From contig OY970393.1 of assembly GCA_963720465.1 (NCBI GenBank), forward strand, positions 1,760,001 to 1,824,000: DNA of 64,000 bases. Direction: 5' to 3'. The translations under genes were made by a program, and so were the position numbers. The DNA comes from Methanobacteriota archaeon (GTDB taxonomy: Archaea > Halobacteriota > Bog-38 > Methanoflorentales > Methanoflorentaceae). This document shows positions 3,345 to 47,226 of the stretch, piece after piece. The notes beneath the pieces are model-generated. The model saw only the letters and a list, made by a program, of their open reading frames with translations, made no database searches and was not told the origin of the DNA. Positions within the stretch are counted from its first letter, which is position 1. Each line of letters begins with the position of its first letter.

Positions 3345-4511
3345 ATGAATCGAGAAACGCTCCAATCCCGGCAACGTAAACCGCTTAGGCCCGCGGCTGC
3401 GGCAACATTGGACGATGCGGGGGCGCTGGCGGACGGCTACAGCCACATTCCCGCTCTTAACGACGCCATTGTGGGCTATTTCAAAGATGCCGTGCGCATC
3501 ACCCTAAGGGAACCCGCGAAATCGCTCTTCTTTTTCCGCACTATTTTGTGGCAGAGGAAAGCGGCCCGCGTGCGGCTGAAATGGCAGAAAAGTGGCCTGC
3601 ACGTGCCGGCCCTCCTTATTGTGAGCGTAACGAGCAAGTGCAACCTTCGATGCAAAGGATGCTACGCCTTTGCGCGTGACAAGGGCAAATCAAAAGCGCC
3701 GGAGTTGAGTGACGTTCGGCTTCGTACGCTGGTCGCTGAGGCAAATGAGCTTGGAATCTCGACAATTTTATTCGCAGGAGGAGAACCACTGATCCGCAAG
3801 GATCTCCTGACCATTACCAAAGATTTCCCTTCTGTCATATTCCCGATAGTCACGAACGGAACGCTCATCGATGAGGGTACGCTTGACCACTTTCGAACCC
3901 AGAGAAATGTTATCCCGGTTGTTAGTATAGAAGGCGACGAACGTGACACTGATGAGCGTCGAGGCGTCGGGATGCACAAGCGCCTGCAGAACGCAATGGA
4001 AGAGATGTATGCCAAAGGAATCTTTTTTGGCTGCTCTCTGACGATAACACGGTCTAACTTTGCGACGATCACCGATCCCCTCTTCATAGAAAGCCTCATC
4101 CATGCAGGGACTAAGCTCATCCTCCTCCTAGAGTATGTTTCGGTGGAGCCAGGCACTGAAGACTGGATCTTGACCGATGAGCAGCGGAGCACGCTGGCGC
4201 ACAAAACAGAGCGATTTCGCACTCAATTTCCTGCAATCTTCATTGAAATTCCCGGAGACGAGGAACAGTATGGCGGGTGTCTGGCTGCGGGGCGCGGATT
4301 CGTTCACGTGAGCCCTGACGGAGATCTTGAGCCGTGCCCGGTTTCCCCCTACTCCGATGCAAATGTGCAGCAGCTCTCCCTCAAAGAGGCGCTTCAATCG
4401 AGACTTTTGCAGGCAATTCGCCAGCGTCACGAGACACTTAGCGAGATGCAGGGCGGCTGCGCGTTGTGGACTGAGCGTGAGTGGGTGCGATCTTTGCTAC
4501 AACCGCCATAA
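3345..4511 (+). CDS. Radical SAM protein with Twitch/SPASM-like C-terminus
   Basis: CNLRCKGC, GGEPL, TNG, and GGCLAAGRGFVHVSPDGDLEPCP. Confidence 0.9.
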   Translation: MNRETLQSRQRKPLRPAAAATLDDAGALADGYSHIPALNDAIVGYFKDAVRITLREPAKSLFFFRTILWQRKAARVRLKWQKSGLHVPALLIVSVTSKCNLRCKGCYAFARDKGKSKAPELSDVRLRTLVAEANELGISTILFAGGEPLIRKDLLTITKDFPSVIFPIVTNGTLIDEGTLDHFRTQRNVIPVVSIEGDERDTDERRGVGMHKRLQNAMEEMYAKGIFFGCSLTITRSNFATITDPLFIESLIHAGTKLILLLEYVSVEPGTEDWILTDEQRSTLAHKTERFRTQFPAIFIEIPGDEEQYGGCLAAGRGFVHVSPDGDLEPCPVSPYSDANVQQLSLKEALQSRLLQAIRQRHETLSEMQGGCALWTEREWVRSLLQPP

Positions 4512-4599
4512 CGTTCCGTCCTTCCACTGCGATTACGTGATTTGATACGCCACGCTGTAGAACAACGCTTAAGAGAGGCCAGGCGCGAGATTCCCGGAG

Positions 4600-5108
4600 C
4601 TATCGATCTTCCGACATTGTGGCCACCGTGGCATCGCTCTGCATCTGCAGCGCGCCTGCAAATTGCCGCAGCTTCTCTGTGTACTCCTCATTTTTGACCA
4701 CCGCGGCTCGAAGCGCAAGCACGCTGACGGGAGGCCTCCCGCATAGAGCTTGCATATCGCTAAACAACTTCTTATTCTCGTTGCCCCCCTGCGTGCAAAA
4801 GAATGCGATGCCGTTGAATTTCGACTTGTAGATCGTGATATAGGTCCGCATCGGAGTAGACATCAGGCCGTTCCAGACGGGTGTACCAAGCGTGACCACA
4901 TCGTACAACGCTGATCGTAAATAAGCGGTTCCAGTACCGTCAGCTTGTTTCTAGCTGCGTCTCGCCCAGACCTCAGAAAGCCTAGGGGGCCTGTGCGTTT
5001 CTTGGTGTCGATAAGCTCTTCACTATCGCATTGCAGCAGGTCTGCTAAGGCTCCCCCCACTCTCTTGGTGGTCCCAGTTCTCGAATAAAACACCACTTGT
5101 GGCTTCAC
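4600..5108 (-). pseudogene. Flavodoxin, split by a single frameshift near 4913
   Basis: VVFYSRTGTT in one frame; YDVVTLGTPVW...AFFCTQGG in the next; could also be an assembly error. Confidence 0.75.
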
Positions 5109-5793
5109 AGTGTTTCTTCTGATCAGGTTACGCGAGTACCCGCTTTTAATTTTATGGTTGCTTGCTCGCGAAAGCTGCCATGTGCCGGCTAGGTCCGAAA
5201 AGCGTCGAAAAATGGGGACGCTATTGGGGGGCTCAAGAAGCGTTGAAAATTGAATTAATCGTGCTCAACAGCTTCATACAGCGGATCGAGCATCGCTATC
5301 ACTATACAGTATGAAAGAGTAGGGTTTATGGGTTGCTTTAGTCATACTGTAGTAAGAGCACCCTATTCTTAGGCATCTTTTGGAGTTACAGAGCCTTCCA
5401 CTCAACGGTTCCCATTGTTTCCTGTGCAACGGTCACTTACCTTTGGGCAAGACCAACGCGTTGAAGCGCCTGAATAGCAAAAATGGCAAACCCATAACGG
5501 GGCTTATTTGCGTGATAGTCAGCATGCAGCGTCTTGATCAAATGGGATCCATAAAGGCGTGCGTTGGCATCGCTCGCTGGACAGTTGAGAGACGGCAGTC
5601 GAAATGAAGCTAGAAACTATTTAAAACGACGTCAGAGCGCCCGTCTGAATGTGCTTCCAATGGAGCACTAGCGAGCCTCGCGGCCACGCGTGAAAACGCA
5701 CTGGACGTCGCCCGTTTAGAAAAATAAGAATCTCTGTCCCACAGAAGACCTTCATTTCAAGTCCAAATTTTTAAAAGAAAGTCAAAATGGGAC

Positions 5794-5808
5794 CGAAATC
5801 GTTAAATA
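5794..5808 (+). promoter_or_regulatory. BRE/TATA promoter of candidate sRNA copy 1
   Basis: CGAAATCG-TTAAATA, identical in copy 2 and at the same distance from the hairpin. Confidence 0.65.
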
Positions 5809-5830
5809 TAACGCCTGTAGTGTTTAATGT

Positions 5831-5916
5831 GTCGATGCTGGAGAGCGAGGGCCCGCTGCGTGGCCCTACCTCGAACCGTCTTTTACTCTATGTGGCGGAC
5901 CCCGCTCCGTGTTGAC
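5831..5916 (+). ncRNA. Candidate small hairpin RNA, copy 1
   Basis: Stems GTCGATGC/GTGTTGAC, GAGCG/CGCTC, GGG.CCGC/GCGG.CCC and TGCGTGG/CTATGTG close a loop beginning CCCTACCTC; T-tract at 5939-5944. Confidence 0.6.
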
Positions 5917-5939
5917 CGGTGAAGGTTATGCTTCTCAGT

Positions 5940-6200
5940 TTTTTGCACGGTTCCCATGCCTATGTGGATAGTTATTGGCTTCGTCGTCACTATCGGCTAA
6001 GCGGCGTCGATCATCAGGATATCGTTCTTAACCTCCATTCGAATGCTCGAAATTATGTTACTTGCTGCCTCGACTTGCACTGACTGGGCGTCGCTTTGGG
6101 CTACCTGCAGTGTTCCATGAAGTGTAAAGTCGATACTGGTCGGGGGGGCGACGCTCTTCTTTTCAGTAGTCATAGTCCCTGATTTGTTGCTTGCGCTTGT
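5940..6200 (-). pseudogene. Remnant of a DUF2807 / head GIN domain protein
   Basis: GTLQVAQSDAQSVQVEAASNIISSIRMEVKNDILMI, then a stop, then KPITIHIGM; no intact N-terminus. Confidence 0.5.
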
Positions 6201-6368
6201 TTTGATATGAAGGTAAGCACTAGTGACTGTGCCTACGTTGCTAGCGCTATCGCACAAACTACCTTTATTCTTTCGCGATTGTAGTCCGATTACACCACTA
6301 CCAACTAGCCTATAGGGATTTCGAAAAGGTCAGTTCAGCATAAGGTATATATGTGGTAATATCTTATA

Positions 6369-6386
6369 ATATATCTAAAGATATAT
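6369..6386. promoter_or_regulatory. Palindromic operator upstream of the PadR gene
   Basis: ATATATCT-AA-AGATATAT, 8-bp inverted repeat ~40 bp before the ATG. Confidence 0.55.
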
Positions 6387-6423
6387 CATTTGGAACGACA
6401 TATACCAGAGAGCGTGCAAAAAA

Positions 6424-6940
6424 ATGTGGCGGTACTGGACGAAAAGCCAAAAGCAATGGACCAAAGGACAATTCCCAAACATGCCACTCTCCGCCCCTTC
6501 TAAAATGGAGCGTGGCACACTTAAATATGCCCTTTTAATGGCACTCAGAGACCAGCCGCTTCACGGCTACGCCATCATCAAGGCAATAGAAGGAACTTCT
6601 GGGTATCCACCGAGCTCCGGGATCGTTTATCCGACACTCCAGATGCTTGAAGATTAAGGATCCCTCCTAAAGACGCAGCTACAAATCAAAAAGGTGTACA
6701 CACTCACTGAAGACGGGCGTCGCTGCCTTGATGAACACCGTGAAGTGGTCGACCGCATCGAAACGCGAGCGCACACGCCCAGATGGAATTCAATTCCCCG
6801 GTATTGGTTCAAAACTAACAGAGATTGCCCGAGCCATCCTTGCTAATTACCATTACCTTGACGATGACAAGGTGAGCAAGATTGAGGACATTTTGAAAGA
6901 TGCCCGGAAGCACATAGGCCAGATCATTTTTGAGCGCTAG
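6424..6940 (+). pseudogene. PadR-family regulator with nonsense codon (6655) and frameshift
   Basis: LHGYAIIKAIE...PSSGIVYPTLQMLED*G...KKVYTLTEDGR; the C-terminal helix is in another frame. Confidence 0.8.
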
Positions 6941-6999
6941 CCCGGCAGGGCGGAATTGTGCACCTGATGGTGCATCGTCTAGAAAAAAAGGTGATTGAC

Positions 7000-7239
7000 G
7001 TGAACGACTTGTGGATCGATCTCATTGCAGCGCCGTTGCCCCAATGCATCAAATGCAAACATTTGGATCGTGGAACGCTCCAGTGTCCCGCTTTCGGGGA
7101 CACGCCAATACCAGACGACATTCAGCTTAGGCTCAGCGATCACCGCTACCCGTACCCGGGGGACCACGGCGTTCTGTTTGAAGAGAAGCATTCTTCAAGG
7201 CTTTCTGGTGAACATTCGCTGTCTCTGAGAGCTGAATAA
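7000..7239 (+). CDS. Small Cys/His-rich hypothetical protein
   Basis: AAGGTGA SD before GTG; CIKCKH..CPAF..PIPDDI..DHRYPYPGDHGVLFE. Confidence 0.65.
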   Translation: MNDLWIDLIAAPLPQCIKCKHLDRGTLQCPAFGDTPIPDDIQLRLSDHRYPYPGDHGVLFEEKHSSRLSGEHSLSLRAE

Positions 7240-7317
7240 AGCGATCGTCGTCATTTAGTGGCGTCGTTCAGAGGCAACGAGCTTGAGACTCTGCCGAATG
7301 TGGTATGAGCAGTCTTG

Positions 7318-23176: not shown

Positions 23177-23917
23177 TCAGCGACGATCCGGGCCAACGCG
23201 GCTGAGCTCGACGATTTCTAGAATCTCTGCCATATCGCGTATTTCGAAGTCCGGGCGTATTTCGGGCTTTGGAATGCGCTGCTTTTTATTGTACCAGATA
23301 GCCGTCAACCCTGCCTTTTTTGCTCCCAAAATATCAGAAGTGATCGTATCCCCGACGAAGGCCGTTGCTTCCCGTCCTATGTCCATCTTGCGTATGGCCT
23401 CGTTGAATAGTCGCGAATGTGGTTTGTAGACTTGAAGTTCTTCAGAGGTGACGATCACGTCAAAAAGGTCAGAGACCCCGTTGAGATGGGCCGACAACTC
23501 CTCGGCGTCTCCGTTTGAAACCATTCCGAGCCTGCATCCGTTTGTGCAAAGTATTTCGAGCGTCTTTTTGACGTTCGGAAGAATGGTAACAGCTTCGTCG
23601 AGCATTTTCTTGAAGATGCGGTTCAGCTCTTCAACGTAAGCGTCCGGCACGTCTATCCCGTAACGCTGAAAGACGTTTTTTGCGCTAATTCCATAAAGAT
23701 CGCGCATATTTCTAAACTCGCCACAGTACGCGATCACGTCGCGGAATGCGCACTCAAACTCTTCGCTCCAGAAGGCGTTGAACTCTTCAACCGATGTGGT
23801 AATGCCGAAGAACGTATTTGATTGCTGGACGACGTGTTTCGTTATGTCCCGGTGGTACGTGCCGACATCGAGCACGGTGCCATAGGCGTCAAAGAGGACT
23901 GCTTCTGTCCCAATCAT
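23177..23917 (-). CDS. HAD-superfamily hydrolase
   Basis: FDAYGT, VSNG, KP and VGDTITSDI. Confidence 0.9.
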   Translation of the reverse strand: MIGTEAVLFDAYGTVLDVGTYHRDITKHVVQQSNTFFGITTSVEEFNAFWSEEFECAFRDVIAYCGEFRNMRDLYGISAKNVFQRYGIDVPDAYVEELNRIFKKMLDEAVTILPNVKKTLEILCTNGCRLGMVSNGDAEELSAHLNGVSDLFDVIVTSEELQVYKPHSRLFNEAIRKMDIGREATAFVGDTITSDILGAKKAGLTAIWYNKKQRIPKPEIRPDFEIRDMAEILEIVELSRVGPDRR

Positions 23918-24620
23918 CAGCTAAATGTTTGCGTGGAAAGGTAAATACCTGTTTGTGAGGCGAAAAGGCCGGCCATCCGTTCTACTGTTAGAACTGTAAT
24001 TCTGCTGTAATTCTGTTTCCCATCTACGTGGAAGCGGCGGTGATCTTCGACGGCGGCAGATAACGTGAGCGTCGCTGATGCGGTGCACGAGGAGAATGTA
24101 TAGAAACAGCGGCTTATGACTTCGTTGCTAATCTTTCACTTCGTGAACTTCACACGAGCGCTGGGCAAATCGTTTACACGTGTGCTTTCTTCATCTGGAG
24201 TCGCACCGCGCTTTTTTTTGCACAACGCACGGGGCCAGTGAAAAGTCTCGCAAACAAAGACTAAAAAACAGAAAGGGGGTGAAAAACGGCCGGATCGCGC
24301 ATCCAAGCCGTTTGGCCCAGCAAGATGACGAACCGAGAGCTTTTCTTGCCGACCGAGGCAGGCCCGCATCTTTGGACGCACAGCCACAACCGAGTTGTGA
24401 CTAGCTCTCATTCTGTGTGCAAACGCTTAAGCGTGTCGTAAGGAAAGTATAGAGACTACGGCTAGCTGAACGAAGACGTCAGACGCCGATATTGCGGCGT
24501 GATCAGCCGTGCGGACAAGCTTTGGCGCGCGAGACGCTGCTCGGGAGGTCTATATAGAGTATGAGGGATGCGTTGACATAGATCTCTCTCCTCTATTGAC
24601 TATGGAGGTGAGAGAGAAAG

Positions 24621-24839
24621 ATGCAAGCGAAAGAGAAACTGGAGAAACCCCTCAAGTGGTTTATCCTGCCGAACGAATCGTACAAGTGGGACTTCATCCT
24701 TGAGAAGTACGTTGTTGAGGATTCTCAGCAGGAGGTCGCTACCGAAAGCGTCATGACTCAACGGCTTGATGATGGGTTTGACAAGGACTATATCGTCACG
24801 CACAAGAGACGAAAACAACGAGACCGCTACTACTATTGA
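24621..24839 (+). CDS. Small hypothetical protein (72 aa)
   Basis: TATA at 24549-24556, GGAGGTGA SD, T-tracts downstream. Confidence 0.65.
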   Translation: MQAKEKLEKPLKWFILPNESYKWDFILEKYVVEDSQQEVATESVMTQRLDDGFDKDYIVTHKRRKQRDRYYY

Positions 24840-25021
24840 GCGGTAGAGCTCTACGCTTATTTTTGCGCAACGTACTCATTTTTTTGTCTTGAGCAGGCGA
24901 GAGCGCATCGGATGGCACGCCCTTTCGCCCAGTCAATTCACGCCGGCCGTTCTTCTTTGCATTTTTTTAACACCAAAAATACGCTTCTTCAAGCGAACCA
25001 TTGGCACAGGCACCAAGATGG

Positions 25022-25162
25022 TCACGAGTTCGAGTTGCTTTTAACGAGTATATTCACTCGTGCGCACTGGATGCAGTACAGTTCGTGACGACTGAGCACC
25101 CACCCGTTGGTCAGGACATTATCGCCACAGACTGAACAGCGCGGTCTATCGGTCTTCATCAT
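25022..25162 (-). CDS. Small zinc-finger-like protein
   Basis: CSVCG and YCIQCA; follows the 25185-25367 ORF. Confidence 0.5.
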   Translation of the reverse strand: MMKTDRPRCSVCGDNVLTNGWVLSRHELYCIQCARVNILVKSNSNS

Positions 25163-25184
25163 CGTCACGATTCGTTGCAAAGCA

Positions 25185-25367
25185 TTAATGAAAAAAGGTG
25201 GTTGGAAGGAACCCACTAAGGATCGACACGGCGAAGCTAATATCTTCGAGGGCGCGTTCAAGATAATAGACGCACGCTTCGTCCTTCACCCTCAGACACT
25301 CTTTCGAGCATTCCCCATACAGGTGGTCGTAGCAGTTCACCACTTTTTCAACTTGGTCGGTGTGTAT
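25185..25367 (-). CDS. Small Cys-containing protein (60 aa), likely ATA start; absent from the ORF track
   Basis: GGAAAC-ATATAT promoter; AGGAGGTGA + 6 nt + ATA; HTDQVEKVVNCYDHLYGECSKECLRVKDEACVYYLERALEDISFAVSILSGFLPTTFFH. Confidence 0.55.
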   Translation of the reverse strand: MHTDQVEKVVNCYDHLYGECSKECLRVKDEACVYYLERALEDISFAVSILSGFLPTTFFH

Positions 25368-25454
25368 CGCGCATCACCTCCTTGAGCGAGGCTTGCGTCA
25401 GACCGCCGATATATGTTTCCTCTGTGCTCTCCCAAGTCACACTTCCTCTCCCGA

Positions 25455-25515
25455 GTTGACACGGCGCGTTGACACGGCGCGTTGACACGGCGCGTTGACA
25501 CGGCGCGTTGACACG
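25455..25515. repeat. Perfect 13-bp tandem repeat (GTTGACACGGCGC), 4.7 copies
   Basis: Four full units plus GTTGACACG, no spacers. Confidence 0.95.
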
Positions 25516-26369
25516 CAGACCGGTGGGCGCAGGCTGAAAAGCGGCATCGAAAAACGGTTTGTCAGTGGTGAGCGCGGTGAAAAATGGTCAGCAGCACAAA
25601 GACGGAGAAGTCAATTTGCTGTTATACGCTCACCACAGGGAGACGAAATGAAGTTGACAGTCGCCCATAAACACAGGCTCGATCCTGATTGCAAGGGAGA
25701 ACGGCAGAGCACAGCACGGTTGAGCGTGGTTCCATTCTCCCGACCTTTTCCCGAGCAGGTTTTCTTACACGACCATATGATTGTTTGCGTCATGCCAAAA
25801 GTAGTCACTGCACAGAGAATACAGAATCTCTATATTTGTTCTGCACTCGTCTTGGCGGTCTTCTCTGTTCGATACTAGCTGTTTCCGAAAGCTAAGGCTC
25901 AGAGCAGACACAGGCAGCAACGCGCGTATGTACTTGCCAGAAATCGCCACTGCCGCGAAAGGAGACTCTATTCTCTCTCGAGAATAAGGTAAAGCAGTCG
26001 AAGCGCTCCTGGAATATCGAGTGGAGAAAGAAATGCGTCTTGGCCCATATTAGTGAGATTGTCCACGGCGCTCTCTTGTCGAAGGCAAAAATAATGCGCG
26101 ATACAATAACGGAGAGCCCGAGCCACAACCGATTGGCGCTGAAACAGCGAAATGCGAAGGATGCAAAGACAAGCGTTGTGGAGTGCTACACTGGCAGTCT
26201 GAATGGTGCTGGGGGCGACGATTCTGTTGGCGCCGTATCAGTAGGGCAGACCTTTGAGACTCAGTGCTATCCCTCGCAAACTCTCTCATTATATTCTGAC
26301 TCGAACAACAAAAAAAGGTGCTAAAGAGATGCGCGTCTACAAAGGTTGGTCTGCTACCTCGGAGGCATA

Positions 26370-26531
26370 ATGTCAGATCTTCTTGCAGTATTCTCCATTA
26401 TCGCAATCTCGCTTGCAGCGATCACTATTGCTATCCACTTGCTTCCATTGCTCATCCTAGCCGCACTTGTGCTGCTTGCGGTATCGAGTTCATTCTTGCG
26501 AAACCGTCCACAAAGATCTCTCTTGCATTAG
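26370..26531 (+). CDS. Small hydrophobic membrane peptide (53 aa)
   Basis: GGAGG SD; ~35-aa hydrophobic stretch with a basic tail. Confidence 0.55.
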   Translation: MSDLLAVFSIIAISLAAITIAIHLLPLLILAALVLLAVSSSFLRNRPQRSLLH

Positions 26532-26805
26532 TTCGACCATTTTCCGCTTCTTGTCGGTCGCATTCTCCGTCTGTTCATATTACAAGCGACCGTTTCTTGC
26601 ATATGCTCTAGTGAAGTGCCAAAAGTGCGTCTAAAAGAGTGGAGAAGAAGACGTGACCCCCTTGGGGAGGTACGAGCAGCTTAATAGCAACTCTCGCATG
26701 AACAGAGGCACTGATCTGGGATGTACGCGCGCCTGGGGCCGTCACTTCACGCACAATGGATGGGGCATTTTTATCTACTGATGGGGCAACATACGAAGCA
26801 AATTG

Positions 26806-27054
26806 ATGAATGCTGATGAGAAACACGTAAAGAGGGTAAAAATTCGTTTGCACGAGCTGCGGGAAGCGTCGGATGCGGCCGAGCTCGATAAGTTCCTTGC
26901 GCGGCGAAAAGGAATCATCAATGTCGAGGTGATCCCTGATTTTTTCACCGTCACGGTGACGTACGATGAGCGCCTAACGACACCAAGGCAGATCATTGCC
27001 GATTTAAGCAGCATCCGTTTTACCCCGGAAGGCTCAATTCTACTCACTGACTAG
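26806..27054 (+). CDS. HMA-like fold protein lacking CxxC
   Basis: KGIINVEV.....VTVTYD.......II..L pattern of HMA domains. Confidence 0.55.
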   Translation: MNADEKHVKRVKIRLHELREASDAAELDKFLARRKGIINVEVIPDFFTVTVTYDERLTTPRQIIADLSSIRFTPEGSILLTD

Positions 27055-27160
27055 AGTGCTGGAGGTATCAATGAATCGTCAACAACCACGCATGCAGCGC
27101 TGGATCGGCTCACGTAGCTCGACCGCCTCTTTCACGTCTCACGCTAACGGTTGAAATGCC

Positions 27161-27718
27161 ATGGGGTTTCTGGACGCACTGCTCGGAAGGACGAAAGGCA
27201 TCGCGCCTAAGGTCAATAGCCTTTTTTCAATGGCGACCGCCTACATCACGCTGAGCACACAGTTTAGCGTACAACCAACGGGCAAAGCTGGCATCTGTTT
27301 CAAGCCCGTTGAATCGGGCGGCTTTTCGAAGTGTGAGAGCGAGATTGAGGAGCTGCTGAAAATCAGCGAGACCACTTTTGAGATCAAGCAGGACGAGTTT
27401 GGTTACGTCTGGGTCATCGTATCCGACGCACAATTTGAGAACGTTGTCTCAGACCTCCACGCGGTGAGCTCGACGCTTATCGACGGCGGATACGGTGAGC
27501 AGATCCTGTGCGCGGTGTTTCCATTTAGAAATGAAAAAAGGATTTTTTGGATCTATAACTACAAGCGCGGCCTTTTTTATCCATTTGTGCTTGCTGACGC
27601 GAAGCAGCATAAGCGCGACTACGCGTATGAGTTCCGGCTTCGGTCGGTTATGCAATCAGAGCTCCCGATAGAGCAAGAGCTGGAGCGCTGGTACCCGCTC
27701 TGGGACGTGCCGCTTTAG
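27161..27718 (+). CDS. pspAB: PspA-associated protein PspAB
   Basis: MGFLDALLGR, DEFGYVW, YNYKRG.FYPF and ELERWYPLW. Confidence 0.85.
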   Translation: MGFLDALLGRTKGIAPKVNSLFSMATAYITLSTQFSVQPTGKAGICFKPVESGGFSKCESEIEELLKISETTFEIKQDEFGYVWVIVSDAQFENVVSDLHAVSSTLIDGGYGEQILCAVFPFRNEKRIFWIYNYKRGLFYPFVLADAKQHKRDYAYEFRLRSVMQSELPIEQELERWYPLWDVPL

Positions 27719-42659: not shown

Positions 42660-43295
42660 TCACGAGCGTATTCGGCTCACAATCCGTTTTCTGTGATAGA
42701 TCAGGTAACCGACAAGGCCGATTATGCCCGCTATGACGACGATATCAAGATATCTAAAGAGCGCCTCAAGATCCGACCAGTGGGGGCCTAGAAGAACGCC
42801 GACATAGGCAAGCCCGAAACACCAAGGAAGCGATCCCAGCACCGTGTAGAGAGAGAATTTCTTCACATCCATCCGGGCGACGCCGGCTGGAAGGGAGATG
42901 AAAGTTCGCACGATCGGCAACAGCCTGCTGACAAAAACAGTGGTCTCTCCATACCTTCCAAACCAGGCGTGTGCCCGGTCAAGTTCACTCTTACGTATCA
43001 GCACGTATTTGCCATACCGCTCAAGGAGGGGCAGGCCTCCGTATCCCCCAACGGAGTAGGCTACGAGTGAGCCGGCGAGGCTGCCGGCCGTACCCGCAAG
43101 GGTAACGCCGATCAGCGTAAGTTCCCCTTTCCAGACGACATAGCCGGCGAAGGGCATTATCACCTCACTAGGCAGCGGAATGCACGCGCTCTCTAGCCCC
43201 ATTGCAACAAAAACACCGGTGTAACCGAGCTGTTCAATTACGGAAATGACGAAATTACTGAGCGTCTCTAAGATATTCAGACTTAAAGCTAACAT
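42660..43295 (-). CDS. DedA family membrane protein
   Basis: ESACIPLPSE and RLLPIVRTFISLPAG. Confidence 0.92.
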   Translation of the reverse strand: MLALSLNILETLSNFVISVIEQLGYTGVFVAMGLESACIPLPSEVIMPFAGYVVWKGELTLIGVTLAGTAGSLAGSLVAYSVGGYGGLPLLERYGKYVLIRKSELDRAHAWFGRYGETTVFVSRLLPIVRTFISLPAGVARMDVKKFSLYTVLGSLPWCFGLAYVGVLLGPHWSDLEALFRYLDIVVIAGIIGLVGYLIYHRKRIVSRIRS

Positions 43296-44064
43296 GCAAG
43301 ATCTAATTGTCTAAACAAAGCGCGCTTTTTCGAAGCGATATTGCTGCATCTCTCTAACCCCGGTTGTTTGTCGCGGTTGTTCCGTTACGATTAGCGGGTT
43401 CATGCGTCGATCATACTATTGCGTTGCGATTATTCTGCCGCACTCCCCAGGAAACCTTTTTTCCTGAAACGGTGCGAAAACACTAAGCCCCTATGGCATG
43501 ACATTATGGCAGGGGCCTCGCTGACACGCTGTACAAATCTCTGCCTTCAGCGATCTCTCCATTCGGTTTCGCACTAGCGAAGCCCTGCTGCGGCGCTCGA
43601 ATAAACAACGTACTCGCGCTGCTTCAATTCTCGCGCTAATATGTCTACTTTTTCTTATTGCCGTCCTTTTTTTAGTGATGCAGCACGAAGTGCATTACAG
43701 CCCAGCTAGGTGTTATTTGCGAAGTCAACTGAGCACGTCACCGAGCTTAAAGTCAACGTCACCATACTTTTTCGGCCTTTGGTTGTATGGTCTTGAACCA
43801 TACTGCAGAACATCGACGCTCATCAAGTGGCCCTCGCCTGGCAACAGGCATTCGGCGGTGTGCCGGTATCCGACTCGAGCCAGAGGCATAATCCACCTCC
43901 GCCTCATTGCCTGCCAGACCGAACTGTTTACGTAGCGCATCTAGGGCGTGCCACGCAGAAATGTCGAATGAGAGAGTCCTGACGGACGCGCAATATATAA
44001 GGGCCCACGTCTTCCTGACTACGAGGAAAGACAATGACTATCAAATATCAAATGAGGTGTTGAG

Positions 44065-44349
44065 CTGACTGAAGAGCAACCAAGCAAGGTGAGACTGCCC
44101 AGAAAACACCAGAATGAGATCTTTGGAACGGTGGAAAAAATGCTCGGCGGAAGCCGAATCACCGTTCGCTCTCAAGATGGAAAAACCCGCATGGGGCGGA
44201 TTCCAGGTAAGATGAAACGAAGAGTATGGCTCCGTGTGGGCGACGTCATTATTATTCGGCCCTGGAGCATTCAAGATGAAAAGGCGGATGTCGTCTGGCG
44301 ATATCTTCCACCACAAGCTGACTGGCTGAGAAGGAAAGGGTACATTTAA
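44065..44349 (+). CDS. eif1a: Translation initiation factor aIF-1A (proposed CTG start)
   Basis: VRLP, MLGG, DGKTRMGRIPGKMK, W...GD, PW.IQ..KADV.WRY; GAGGTG SD 5 nt before CTG. Confidence 0.93.
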   Translation: MTEEQPSKVRLPRKHQNEIFGTVEKMLGGSRITVRSQDGKTRMGRIPGKMKRRVWLRVGDVIIIRPWSIQDEKADVVWRYLPPQADWLRRKGYI

Positions 44350-44557
44350 GCGCTACTTCGCGCACTCTTTTTTGCATCTGCATTGTGTCCGTCGTCGTGA
44401 TTCGTGCCGCAAACCCGGCTCATGAATGATGATAACGCTCGTTACTGCCCTGCTTAATCTTGCGGTAGTGGCGATGATGGTACTATCCGCTGAAGGTCAT
44501 GACACAGTATCCGCACATCGATCTCTCCGCTGCCGGCAAGAGACGTGAGTGAAGCGA

Positions 44558-45801: not shown

Positions 45802-46392
45802 TTATAGCCTTCTTACCTCTTCCGCCTTAGGCTTCCGTCGAAACAGTCGCTCCCTCAGTGACCGCTTTTGCGGCTCGTCTTCCGTCTCCGGCAACGGCGG
45901 TTGCACCTCTTCGGCTCCCGCCTCGCTACTGGGGACTGGGGAGGGAGTTGACACAGCAGCCGGCAGCAAGCGCGCAAGCATCTCACTCACGTCTGCCAGT
46001 CGGTCAATGACCTTGCTCGACTCACTTCCGTAGAACCCCGCGATGGTCTCATACCGCTTAATCTCGTCTTCTCGCGCCTGTTTGAAGCTCTCGTACTGCG
46101 CAGTCAGTCGCTCTATCATATCCGTTTTCATGTAGAGGAGCTCATCTTTATGGCGCAGCTCTCGCTCACGTTTTTCAAGCTCGGCCTCGAGGCGCGCCGC
46201 GGTTTCACGCGGCACCATCAGCGTTCCTAGGTCTTCTTCTGCAGTGCCTTCGCTCTCGCGCCCTCCGTCTAAATATGCTTCTAACGCTGCCGCGACGATC
46301 TTGCTTCGGCTACTGTTTTCAGAGCTCGCCTGCTTGTCAGCAGCAGCCAGGAGTTCGTCTGAAATCGCAATAGTGACTTTGTGTAATGGCAT
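45802..46392 (-). CDS. Ribbon-helix-helix (CopG-like) protein with coiled coil
   Basis: KVTIAISDELL...SRSKIV..AL; coiled coil; C-terminal RSLRERLFRR. Confidence 0.75.
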   Translation of the reverse strand: MPLHKVTIAISDELLAAADKQASSENSSRSKIVAAALEAYLDGGRESEGTAEEDLGTLMVPRETAARLEAELEKRERELRHKDELLYMKTDMIERLTAQYESFKQAREDEIKRYETIAGFYGSESSKVIDRLADVSEMLARLLPAAVSTPSPVPSSEAGAEEVQPPLPETEDEPQKRSLRERLFRRKPKAEEVRRL

Positions 46393-46443
46393 GGGACTTA
46401 CCACCTATGACGGCGCAGAACCGAATGCGGCCCTCGCTTCGGC

Positions 46444-47031
46444 TCAGTCACACCATAGTATGAATGCTTCATACTTGAGCATGTCGCCCGCTAACGGGAT
46501 TTTCCACTCAACAGTTTCCACCGTTTCCGGTGCAAGGCGCGCGAGCATCAGCTGAAGAAAAATCAACTTGCGCGCTTCGATGAAAAAAATAATGAATTTT
46601 CGAGCTCTTTCGCGGAACAGGCAGTAGTGGTAGCCGATCTTTTTCAAACGGTCTCTTTGAAGCTCTCTGTTCGCATAGCTCGCTACGTGGCTTGATAGCG
46701 GCAGTCGCAATGCAGCTAGAAACTATTTATAGCAGGTTCAACACTTTTTTTGAAATTCAGTTCTAGTGATAGTTCGAAGCTCCTTAATTTAACCGTGGAG
46801 ACGGGCAGAACGCCGTCCATTTGCAAAAATAGCTATCTTGCCACAACAAAATACCTTTATTTCGAGTCCAGATTTTAAAAAGAAGGATAAAATAGAAACG
46901 AAATCGTTAAATACGATCAGTGCACGGTTTAATGTGTCGATGCAGCAGGAGCCGGGCTTCGCCGCAAGGCCCTACCTCAAAACGCGCTCTTTTCGCTTGG
47001 CGGGCCCGCGCTCCATGTTGGTCGCCACATT
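46444..47031. repeat. Dispersed non-coding element, copy 2
   Basis: Colinear with 5338-5920; 88/120 identities by hand count, no gaps, for 46794-46913 vs 5689-5808. Confidence 0.9.
46931..47031 (+). ncRNA. Candidate small hairpin RNA, copy 2
   Basis: AATGTG/CACATT, CGAT.CAGCA/TGTTGGTCG, GGAGC/GCTCC and CGGGCT.CGCC..AAG/CTTGGCGGGCCCG; loop contains CCCTACCTC; TATA at 46907-46913. Confidence 0.6.
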
Positions 47032-47226
47032 TCTTCAGCAATATTCTTTGTTGTGTGAGGTGTTTCTTTCGATTTTTCACCGCTTCTCCAGGCATATTTA
47101 AGTCCGGTGGAACGCGATGTTTGTGCGCCGCGTCGCTTGTCGAACCTCCTTTATTCAGGGATCGAAGTCACGGACTAAAGAGCGACCGAGCTGCAAGAGC
47201 TTTCTAAGGACGGTGCGCACTAGGCT

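Follow-up and report, generated by a model that had tools for sequence, protein, structure and literature searches.

Bacterial genomes encode several families of sibling small RNAs with C/U-rich loops and shared promoters, such as the streptococcal csRNAs, LhrC1-5 of Listeria, Qrr1-5 of Vibrio and CcsR1-4 of Rhodobacter. These families are transcribed from sigma-factor promoters and end at intrinsic terminators, and their regulators as well as their targets are known. To our knowledge, very few regulatory RNAs of archaea are understood, and nearly all of these were studied in a small set of cultured model species. For Methanosarcina mazei, the review PMC5867862 describes the anti-RBS loops of sRNA154 and sRNA41 as an established mechanism of archaeal sRNAs and states that the archaeal Lsm protein binds small RNAs. 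In the literature covered by a full-text search, mostly at the level of search results, we found neither RNAs of the kind described below in the lineage studied here nor sibling sRNAs in archaea.

The DNA analysed here, called the window throughout, is a stretch of 64,000 nucleotides from a genome that is assembled as a single contig of 2.31 Mb and was identified as archaeal by its small-subunit rRNA, which matched the archaeal model over its full length with 1583 bits. The lineage is known only from environmental genome bins. A sequence-only reading of the window had proposed a candidate new sRNA family, represented by two hairpins whose anti-Shine-Dalgarno-like loop might mask ribosome binding sites in trans or serve as a protein-binding decoy. 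The proposal of a new family is well supported by six paralogues in the genome, 71 copies in the genus and archaeal promoters of their own, and it is further backed by covarying stems, an invariant unpaired loop motif and the lack of any match in Rfam. Masking of ribosome binding sites was not supported. None of the three outcomes named beforehand as grounds for rejecting the proposal came about outright. As far as can be judged by comparing genomes, the six small RNA genes make up a new sibling family restricted to one genus, for which the evidence at the level of the genes is good; the way in which the RNAs act can be stated with much less confidence.

Two hairpin copies in the window and their relatives in the genus

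Both copies of the hairpin RNA are located on the + strand of the window, copy A at positions 5831-5916 and copy B at positions 46936-47022, and they match the covariance model of the family with 88.2 and 78.2 bits, respectively. Each of them folds into one long hairpin of -36.7 kcal/mol. For copy A (z -3.31) none of 200 shuffled sequences folded as well, and for copy B (z -1.68) 10 of 200 did. The - strands reach only -30.7 (copy A) and -32.9 kcal/mol (copy B). Copy A is composed of a terminal stem joining the 5′ and 3′ ends, a GAGCG/CGCUC stem, G+C-rich middle stems and the apical region CCCUACCUCGAACCGUCUUUUACU; the apical region of copy B is GCCCUACCUCAAAACGCGCUCUUUUCG. Several details of the sequence-only reading were reproduced. 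The stem arms of the two copies differ in sequence with pairing preserved, both loops retain CCCTACCTC...TCTTTT, and an identical TTAAATA box (starting at 5802 and 46907) precedes GTCGATGC (starting at 5831 and 46936) by exactly 29 nt in both copies. CCCTACCTC has exactly two matches in the window, one per copy. GTCGATGC alone is not distinctive, as it occurs 10 times in the window with 3.9 matches expected. The loci are also alike upstream of the hairpins, with 79% column identity across approximately 450 nt. Among the products of the window genes are PAS histidine kinases, UvrB, a SepCysS-like enzyme and a geranylgeranyl reductase; no tRNA or tmRNA was detected in the window.

A BLAST search with a 181-nt locus identified five places in the genome, and a covariance model built from these five added a sixth copy, so that the genome contains six paralogues. 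When 61 genomes were searched with a covariance model, 71 copies were found, all of them within the genus of the window, where 17 of 18 genomes have at least one. Copies are present in 16 of the 17 other species genomes, and the sole genome without copies is 61% complete. No copies were found by covariance model in the 6 genomes of the only sister genus or in 37 genomes from 17 other families of the phylum. A second model (R2), built from all 71 copies and run on the 24 genomes of the class, recovered the same 71 copies and detected nothing in the 6 sister-genus genomes at E-values up to 0.1. With the first model (R1), nothing was found at E-values up to 10 in 4 sister-genus genomes and in one genome (G016) of the window's own genus. 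Beside the PadR-family regulator genes of the sister genus, searched with the filters switched off, the best match scored 9.5 bits and had neither a TATA box nor the loop motif. All eight public records containing the type A loop are titled as archaeal (MAGs of Methanomicrobia, Halobacteriota, Euryarchaeota or Methanobacteriota, or 'archaeon'). The family appears to be restricted to one genus of uncultured methanogen-like archaea.

The copies fall into six paralogue types, A (10 copies), B (14), C (8), D (13), E (15) and F (11), and all six are present in both closed genomes. In these two genomes, A, B, D and C lie within approximately 70 kb of each other, with both order and strand conserved. 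The family shows the marks of a sibling family, namely at least two paralogues per genome, a shared seed and a promoter element common to four of the six copies. Screening of the whole window against Rfam 15 (4227 models) gave no match at the gathering score, and no match was obtained at E-values up to 10 in the five 3-kb loci of copies A-E (15,553 bases).

Comparison of orthologues showed that conservation is centred on the hairpin. The mean pairwise identity was 82-93% within the hairpin, 51-85% in the preceding 115 nt and 25-43% in the following 150 nt. For type A, the hairpin is 93% identical vs 25% downstream, and the type B hairpin is 92.5% identical. Except for type C, with 86% identity downstream, all types show this drop. 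The 150 nt past the type C hairpin (L008 1585-1735, outside the window), in which this identity was found among 8 species, point to another conserved element or to an extended leader of the gene that follows.

Covariation of the stems was measured on an alignment of 66 distinct sequences fitted to the model. Standard pairs were present in 82.9% of the cells, compared with 33-45% when the partners were slid by 1-3 columns, and 15 of the 22 pairs had changes on both sides. The covariation score of this structure-fitted alignment was 0.294 vs 0.196 for shuffled alignments, and none of 500 shuffles reached 0.294, which bears out the earlier description of the stem as covarying. Within the consensus pairs, 216 G-U pairs on the sense strand compare with 63 on the opposite strand. 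Single-sequence folds had a mean z of -2.65, with 48 of 66 below -2. The opposite strand folds better in types C and F and about equally well in type D. From a MAFFT alignment based on sequence only, covering 30 of the 71 copies (five per type), RNAalifold predicted no pairs at all, and from a sequence-only alignment of five copies of the genome it predicted only 10, because MAFFT places the arms of different types out of register; the covariation figures therefore rest on the structure-fitted alignment. As judged by eye from the alignment, a mini-helix of 3 bp (UGG/CCR) that would close a loop of 11-13 nt fits fully in 9 of 15 type E copies, among them one with a change from UGG/CCA to CGG/UCG. 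We regard this helix as too weak to claim.

Promoters, upstream DNA and neighbouring genes

A core promoter resembling BRE/TATA elements (CGAAATCG TTAAATA) precedes copy A at positions 5794-5808 and copy B at positions 46899-46913, both on the + strand and both with the TATA element starting at -29. Since the genome is archaeal, TTAAATA at this position reads as a TATA box preceded by a BRE (CGAAA), and the placement of these elements predicts a transcriptional start site at or adjoining the conserved YCGAU. Scoring with at most one mismatch located the TATA box at -29 in 10/10 loci of type A and at -29 or -28 in 14/14 loci of type B. Types A, B and E have it 28-31 nt upstream in every one of their 39 loci, and for type D this holds in 12 of 13. 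In type F, whose 5′ part is longer, it was found at -47 to -49 in 7 of 11 loci, and a good TATA box is present in only one of eight type C loci.

Probable 3′ ends were marked by runs of T. A TTTTTT run on the + strand (5939-5944), 22 nt past the hairpin of copy A, is a probable archaeal oligo-T stop and implies a transcript of approximately 110 nt. The 3′ end of copy B is uncertain, as the first run of five T (47073-47077, + strand) is located 50 nt downstream and a weaker ATTTCTT lies 7 nt past the hairpin. Of the 10 type A loci, 6 have a run of at least five T 19-22 nt past the hairpin, and in 10 of 13 type D loci such a run follows directly. For type B, the runs occur at 7-11 nt in 6 and at 50 nt in 2 of 14 loci, and the 150 nt past the hairpin are free of them in the remaining 6. 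Many loci of types B, E and F lack a T-run close to the hairpin, and for E and F such runs are rare. The sequence arrangement of the loci points to independent genes with promoters of their own and, in part of the loci, putative T-run terminators.

Further upstream, a partly palindromic block that is conserved across species lies on the + strand at 5748-5781 for copy A (ACCTTCATTTCAAGTCCAAATTTT + TAAAAGAAAG), and its counterpart for copy B, likewise conserved across species, at 46853-46886 (ACCTTTATTTCGAGTCCAGATTTT + AAAAAGAAGG). Its general form, ACCTTyATTTCGAGTCCAGATTTT-AAAAAGAAGG, precedes copies A, B, D and F, at a distance of 50-85 nt from their start. Genome-wide it occurs at four places only (up to five mismatches), all of them in front of these four copies. 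The presence of the block at these RNA genes only suggests one dedicated regulator, and it is probably the binding site of a regulator shared by the four genes.

Types A, B and D additionally have approximately 480 nt of non-coding upstream DNA in common (copy D is located outside the window). This module extends from 5396 to 5623 for copy A and from 46502 to 46729 for copy B, neither assigned to a strand, and contains the same blocks at fixed distances: TTCCACTCAA at -435, GTTTCCnGTGCAA at -414 and AGCTAGAAACTATTTA at -222. On the - strand, the block at -222 reads TAAATAGTTTCTAGCT and resembles a divergent TATA box. The blocks are present in 10/10 loci of type A, 14/14 of type B and 12-13 of 13 of type D, and none was found in types C, E and F; type E consists of hairpin and core promoter without the module. 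A gene within the module was rejected, as no 3-base or codon periodicity was detected, and a structured RNA was rejected, as neither strand gave a consensus structure.

Several RNA loci are accompanied by genes of PadR-family regulators. A broken PadR gene (6451-6937, + strand) begins 535 nt past copy A; it was recognized by tblastn, which returned two pieces in two frames, and by three-frame translation, and its reading frame is broken by an in-frame stop and by a frame shift. Three close PadR paralogues are encoded in the genome, the broken one after A, one 2.1 kb before D and one 1.1 kb from F, and the intact paralogues adjoining D and F are matched by Pfam PadR. The second closed genome has two PadR paralogues, both at a distance of approximately 1 kb from copies D and F, and further species show this linkage as well. 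The PadR genes have palindromic upstream sites of their own of the ATATATC type, with a ATATCTTATAATATATCTAAAGATATATC-like site at approximately 6350-6395. Nothing like these sites was found in the RNA promoters, and PadR was rejected as regulator of the RNA genes. Because the sites differ in this way, joint duplication is as likely as a functional link.

The remaining neighbours of the RNA loci are mutually unrelated. Type B has a constant divergent neighbour, a gene of 200 aa (45802-46404, - strand) present in 14/14 loci, which starts approximately 530 nt from the hairpin. Its N-terminus, as read from the translation, is ribbon-helix-helix-like, and no Pfam match was obtained. Unusually long stretches of the window are free of ORFs of at least 120 aa (4511-7315, 23917-25495, 25878-27161 and 43295-44549). 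At least one of them hides a broken gene, the PadR gene described above, and pseudogenes or indel errors of the single-contig assembly are candidates for these gaps. Crude gene calling accounted for only 69% of the genome.

Metatranscriptomes were searched for transcripts of the loci. Among the 24 runs listed, at most 0.46 of the sampled words were present. Contigs from 4/4 runs (four studies) covered the hairpin and in addition 64-152 nt upstream of the predicted start. For copy A they cover 5679-5916 in pieces, and such contigs cannot reveal ends, strand or level of a transcript and are neutral with regard to a discrete RNA. As they reach past the predicted start, they may represent carry-over of DNA or longer transcripts. 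One metatranscriptome run yielded a contig of 407 nt with a depth of 20 that contains both upstream blocks (window positions 5395-5431 and 5593-5627). Its middle part is diverged at the same length, and it represents a paralogous or orthologous copy of the module in an RNA library, present as RNA or as DNA carry-over.

The conserved loop and its possible partners

The most conserved part of the RNA is the apical motif CURCCUCRA, which occurs as CUACCUCGA, CUACCUCAA or CUGCCUCGA in 60 of the 66 distinct copies; the other six are singletons. In the 66 distinct sequences, the motif was predicted to be unpaired with a mean probability of 0.75 vs 0.33 for the rest of the RNA, and according to these fold models it would provide a conserved and accessible seed. 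Both variable positions alternate between A and G, so that pairing with U is kept and all variants could pair with the common partner UUGAGGUAG. The same A/G variation would equally be expected from a plain transition bias.

The sequence-only reading had taken GAGGU(A/G)G, the complement of the loop, for the Shine-Dalgarno type used in the window. This did not hold. The 16S rRNA of the host ends with GGAUCACCUCCU, and the 5-mers enriched before start codons throughout the genome spell the canonical AGGAGGUGA at the usual distance, matching this 3′ end. Of the 12 GAGGT[AG]G sites that the window has outside its two RNA genes, only one precedes a start codon that opens an ORF of at least 80 aa, and this ORF (118 aa, TTG start) is doubtful. 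The ATG of a long ORF comes next in 8.8% of the occurrences of GGAGGTG and GAGGTGA, in 4.5% (12/264) for GAGGTAG and in 2.3% (1/43) for GAGGTAGG, and unrelated control words gave 1.2-3.6%. These low rates make the loop complement at best a minor variant of the Shine-Dalgarno sequence that shares only the GAGGU core. The loop and the anti-Shine-Dalgarno tail of 16S rRNA have ACCUC in common.

For a search for targets, a 16-nt loop was compared with the regions from -35 to +15 of 2625 crude predicted gene starts, using 20 shuffled loops as controls. Duplexes of -14 kcal/mol or lower were formed with 334 start regions, compared with a mean of 387 for the shuffled loops. Start regions have no excess of affinity for the loop and its complement is not the organism's Shine-Dalgarno sequence, so that masking of ribosome binding sites as a general activity was not supported. 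Across the genome, 54 sites with at least 10 loop-paired bases were detected. They are scattered, mostly intragenic and not concentrated at start codons, and no clear target candidate emerged from the loop-complementary sites. It is still conceivable that the loop pairs with GAGGU cores or with a single specific target.

Since the variation restricted to A and G keeps the pairing with U, we hold trans pairing through the loop for the most likely mode of action, with modest confidence. The RNA would then be one member of a genus-specific family of six sibling sRNA genes acting in trans via the loop, a reading to which we assign a probability of about 0.4. The BRE/TATA promoter of each gene would start transcription at or beside the conserved YCGAU, and four of the six genes would probably respond to a common regulator bound at the upstream block. 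The transcripts are expected to be approximately 85-115 nt in length and to end at the oligo-T runs. As shown by covariation in the structure-fitted alignment, the RNA forms one long imperfect hairpin closed by end-to-end pairing, and its apical loop would display the invariant CURCCUCRA, conserved in the alignment and single-stranded according to the predictions, followed by a U-rich stretch. Most likely, the loop would pair with a single mRNA or a few mRNAs, at a site resembling U-U-G-A-G-G-U-A-G, and thereby alter their translation or stability.

A strong rival to trans pairing is a role in protein binding or as a decoy. It is possible, though less probable than the pairing model, that the RNA is real but binds a protein or the translation machinery, with the loop and the U-rich stretch being recognized and the six copies serving as scaffold or decoy. 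Possible partners are an Lsm/Sm-like protein or a factor that normally binds rRNA. Within types, the entire hairpin including the stems is 82-93% identical, which exceeds the needs of the structure, no set of mRNA targets emerged, and types A, B, C and D have a U-rich stretch downstream of the motif. Furthermore, the 23S rRNA of the host carries CUACCUCGA, the loop 9-mer of types A, C and E, at nt 2527-2535 (contig 1, 931566-931574, - strand), which we take to be the central loop of the peptidyl-transferase region. This match was noticed post hoc; approximately 0.01 such matches are expected per rRNA, but many comparisons were possible and it may be due to chance. Types B, D and F depart from the 9-mer at positions that are conserved in rRNA, and the six loci have no constantly linked gene in common.

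In a less likely scenario, which we consider doubtful, the hairpin is the cis-acting end of a longer transcript, that is, a terminator, a stabilizing 3′ hairpin or the leader of a neighbouring gene. The contigs from RNA libraries that continue 64-152 nt beyond the predicted start would fit such a transcript, as would the terminator-like T-runs directly after the hairpin in 10/13 type D loci and the conserved non-coding stretch of approximately 480 nt that precedes types A, B and D. A plain terminator, however, does not need an invariant loop motif across six paralogues and 18 species, and it does not account for a TATA box fixed at 28-31 nt. The downstream neighbours vary and are often encoded on the opposite strand (e.g. 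after copy B), the upstream module has neither a conserved RNA structure nor a coding signal, and in type E hairpin and core promoter occur without the module.

Two further explanations are improbable. The 23S match, together with the ACCUC shared with the 16S tail, might indicate that the six RNAs are regulated rRNA mimics that titrate a factor binding or modifying rRNA and so act on the translation apparatus instead of on single mRNAs; we consider this quite unlikely. Hardly more can be said for a DNA element without a functional RNA, such as a protein-bound imperfect palindrome or an element of recombination or replication, which we rank slightly lower still. Such an element would agree with the equal or better folding of the opposite strand in types C, D and F and with the location of the loci in conserved modules of non-coding DNA whose blocks keep a fixed spacing. 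The excess of G-U pairs on one strand (216 vs 63), however, would be meaningless in double-stranded DNA, the box resembling a promoter is one-sided and at a fixed distance, and conservation is highest in the loop, whereas in palindromic protein sites it is the arms that are conserved. Moreover, none of the eight viral contigs that match the loop pattern contains the hairpin; all eight are chance matches of the loop only.

A small protein translated from a leaderless mRNA was rejected and is effectively refuted: all copies of types A and E have an ATG among their first 12 nt, as do 11 of the 12 distinct copies of type B, and in copy A this ATG opens a frame of 26 codons from base 5 to the last bases of the hairpin, but the start codon is missing in types D (0/12) and F (0/10) and present in only 4/8 of type C, the frames vary between 8 and 71 codons, the motif falls in frame 1 (type A), frame 2 (type B) or mostly frame 0 (type E), and the types differ by indels that are not multiples of three, so that neither start codon nor reading frame is conserved among the copies.

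Comparison with known RNA systems

Archaeal guide RNAs of the C/D and H/ACA classes are likewise small, structured and abundant RNAs of similar size, and H/ACA RNAs consist of single hairpins. They have C/D or ACA boxes, whereas nearly all copies of the family described here lack these boxes, and none matched a guide RNA family in Rfam. A C box (RUGAUGA) was present in none of the 66 distinct copies, a D box (CUGA) in 4 and both in none, and ACA was found within 8 nt past the hairpin in only 5 of 66 copies. Accordingly, box C/D sRNA and, by the ACA criterion, H/ACA sRNA were rejected as assignments.

Closer in the proposed mechanism are sRNA41 and sRNA154 of M. mazei, which are described as intergenic, stably folded RNAs of a methanogen with anti-RBS loops that mask the RBS of their targets (PMC5867862). 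The likeness is one of proposed mechanism only, and the present family is known solely from the DNA. It also differs from the M. mazei sRNAs in having six paralogues per genome, in its occurrence in one uncultured genus and in a loop that is not the complement of the canonical Shine-Dalgarno sequence.

The restriction to one genus, with copies in 0 of 6 sister-genus genomes, makes the family a dated example of the birth and expansion of an sRNA family. As a multi-copy and cleanly delimited RNA family with a dedicated promoter block, it is open to comparison across species, and it can be used as a specific marker to follow the activity of the genus in metatranscriptomes.

A parallel in gene organization is provided by the sibling sRNA families of bacteria. 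As in those families, several paralogues of approximately 90-150 nt are present per genome, and they share a conserved unpaired seed and a regulatory promoter element. By analogy, the shared seed and promoter element suggest one regulator and overlapping targets. Unlike the bacterial families, the genes described here have archaeal promoters of the BRE/TATA type, and there is no sequence relationship. If the six RNAs indeed form one regulon under a common regulator, they would represent the first sibling sRNA system of archaea in the literature searched.
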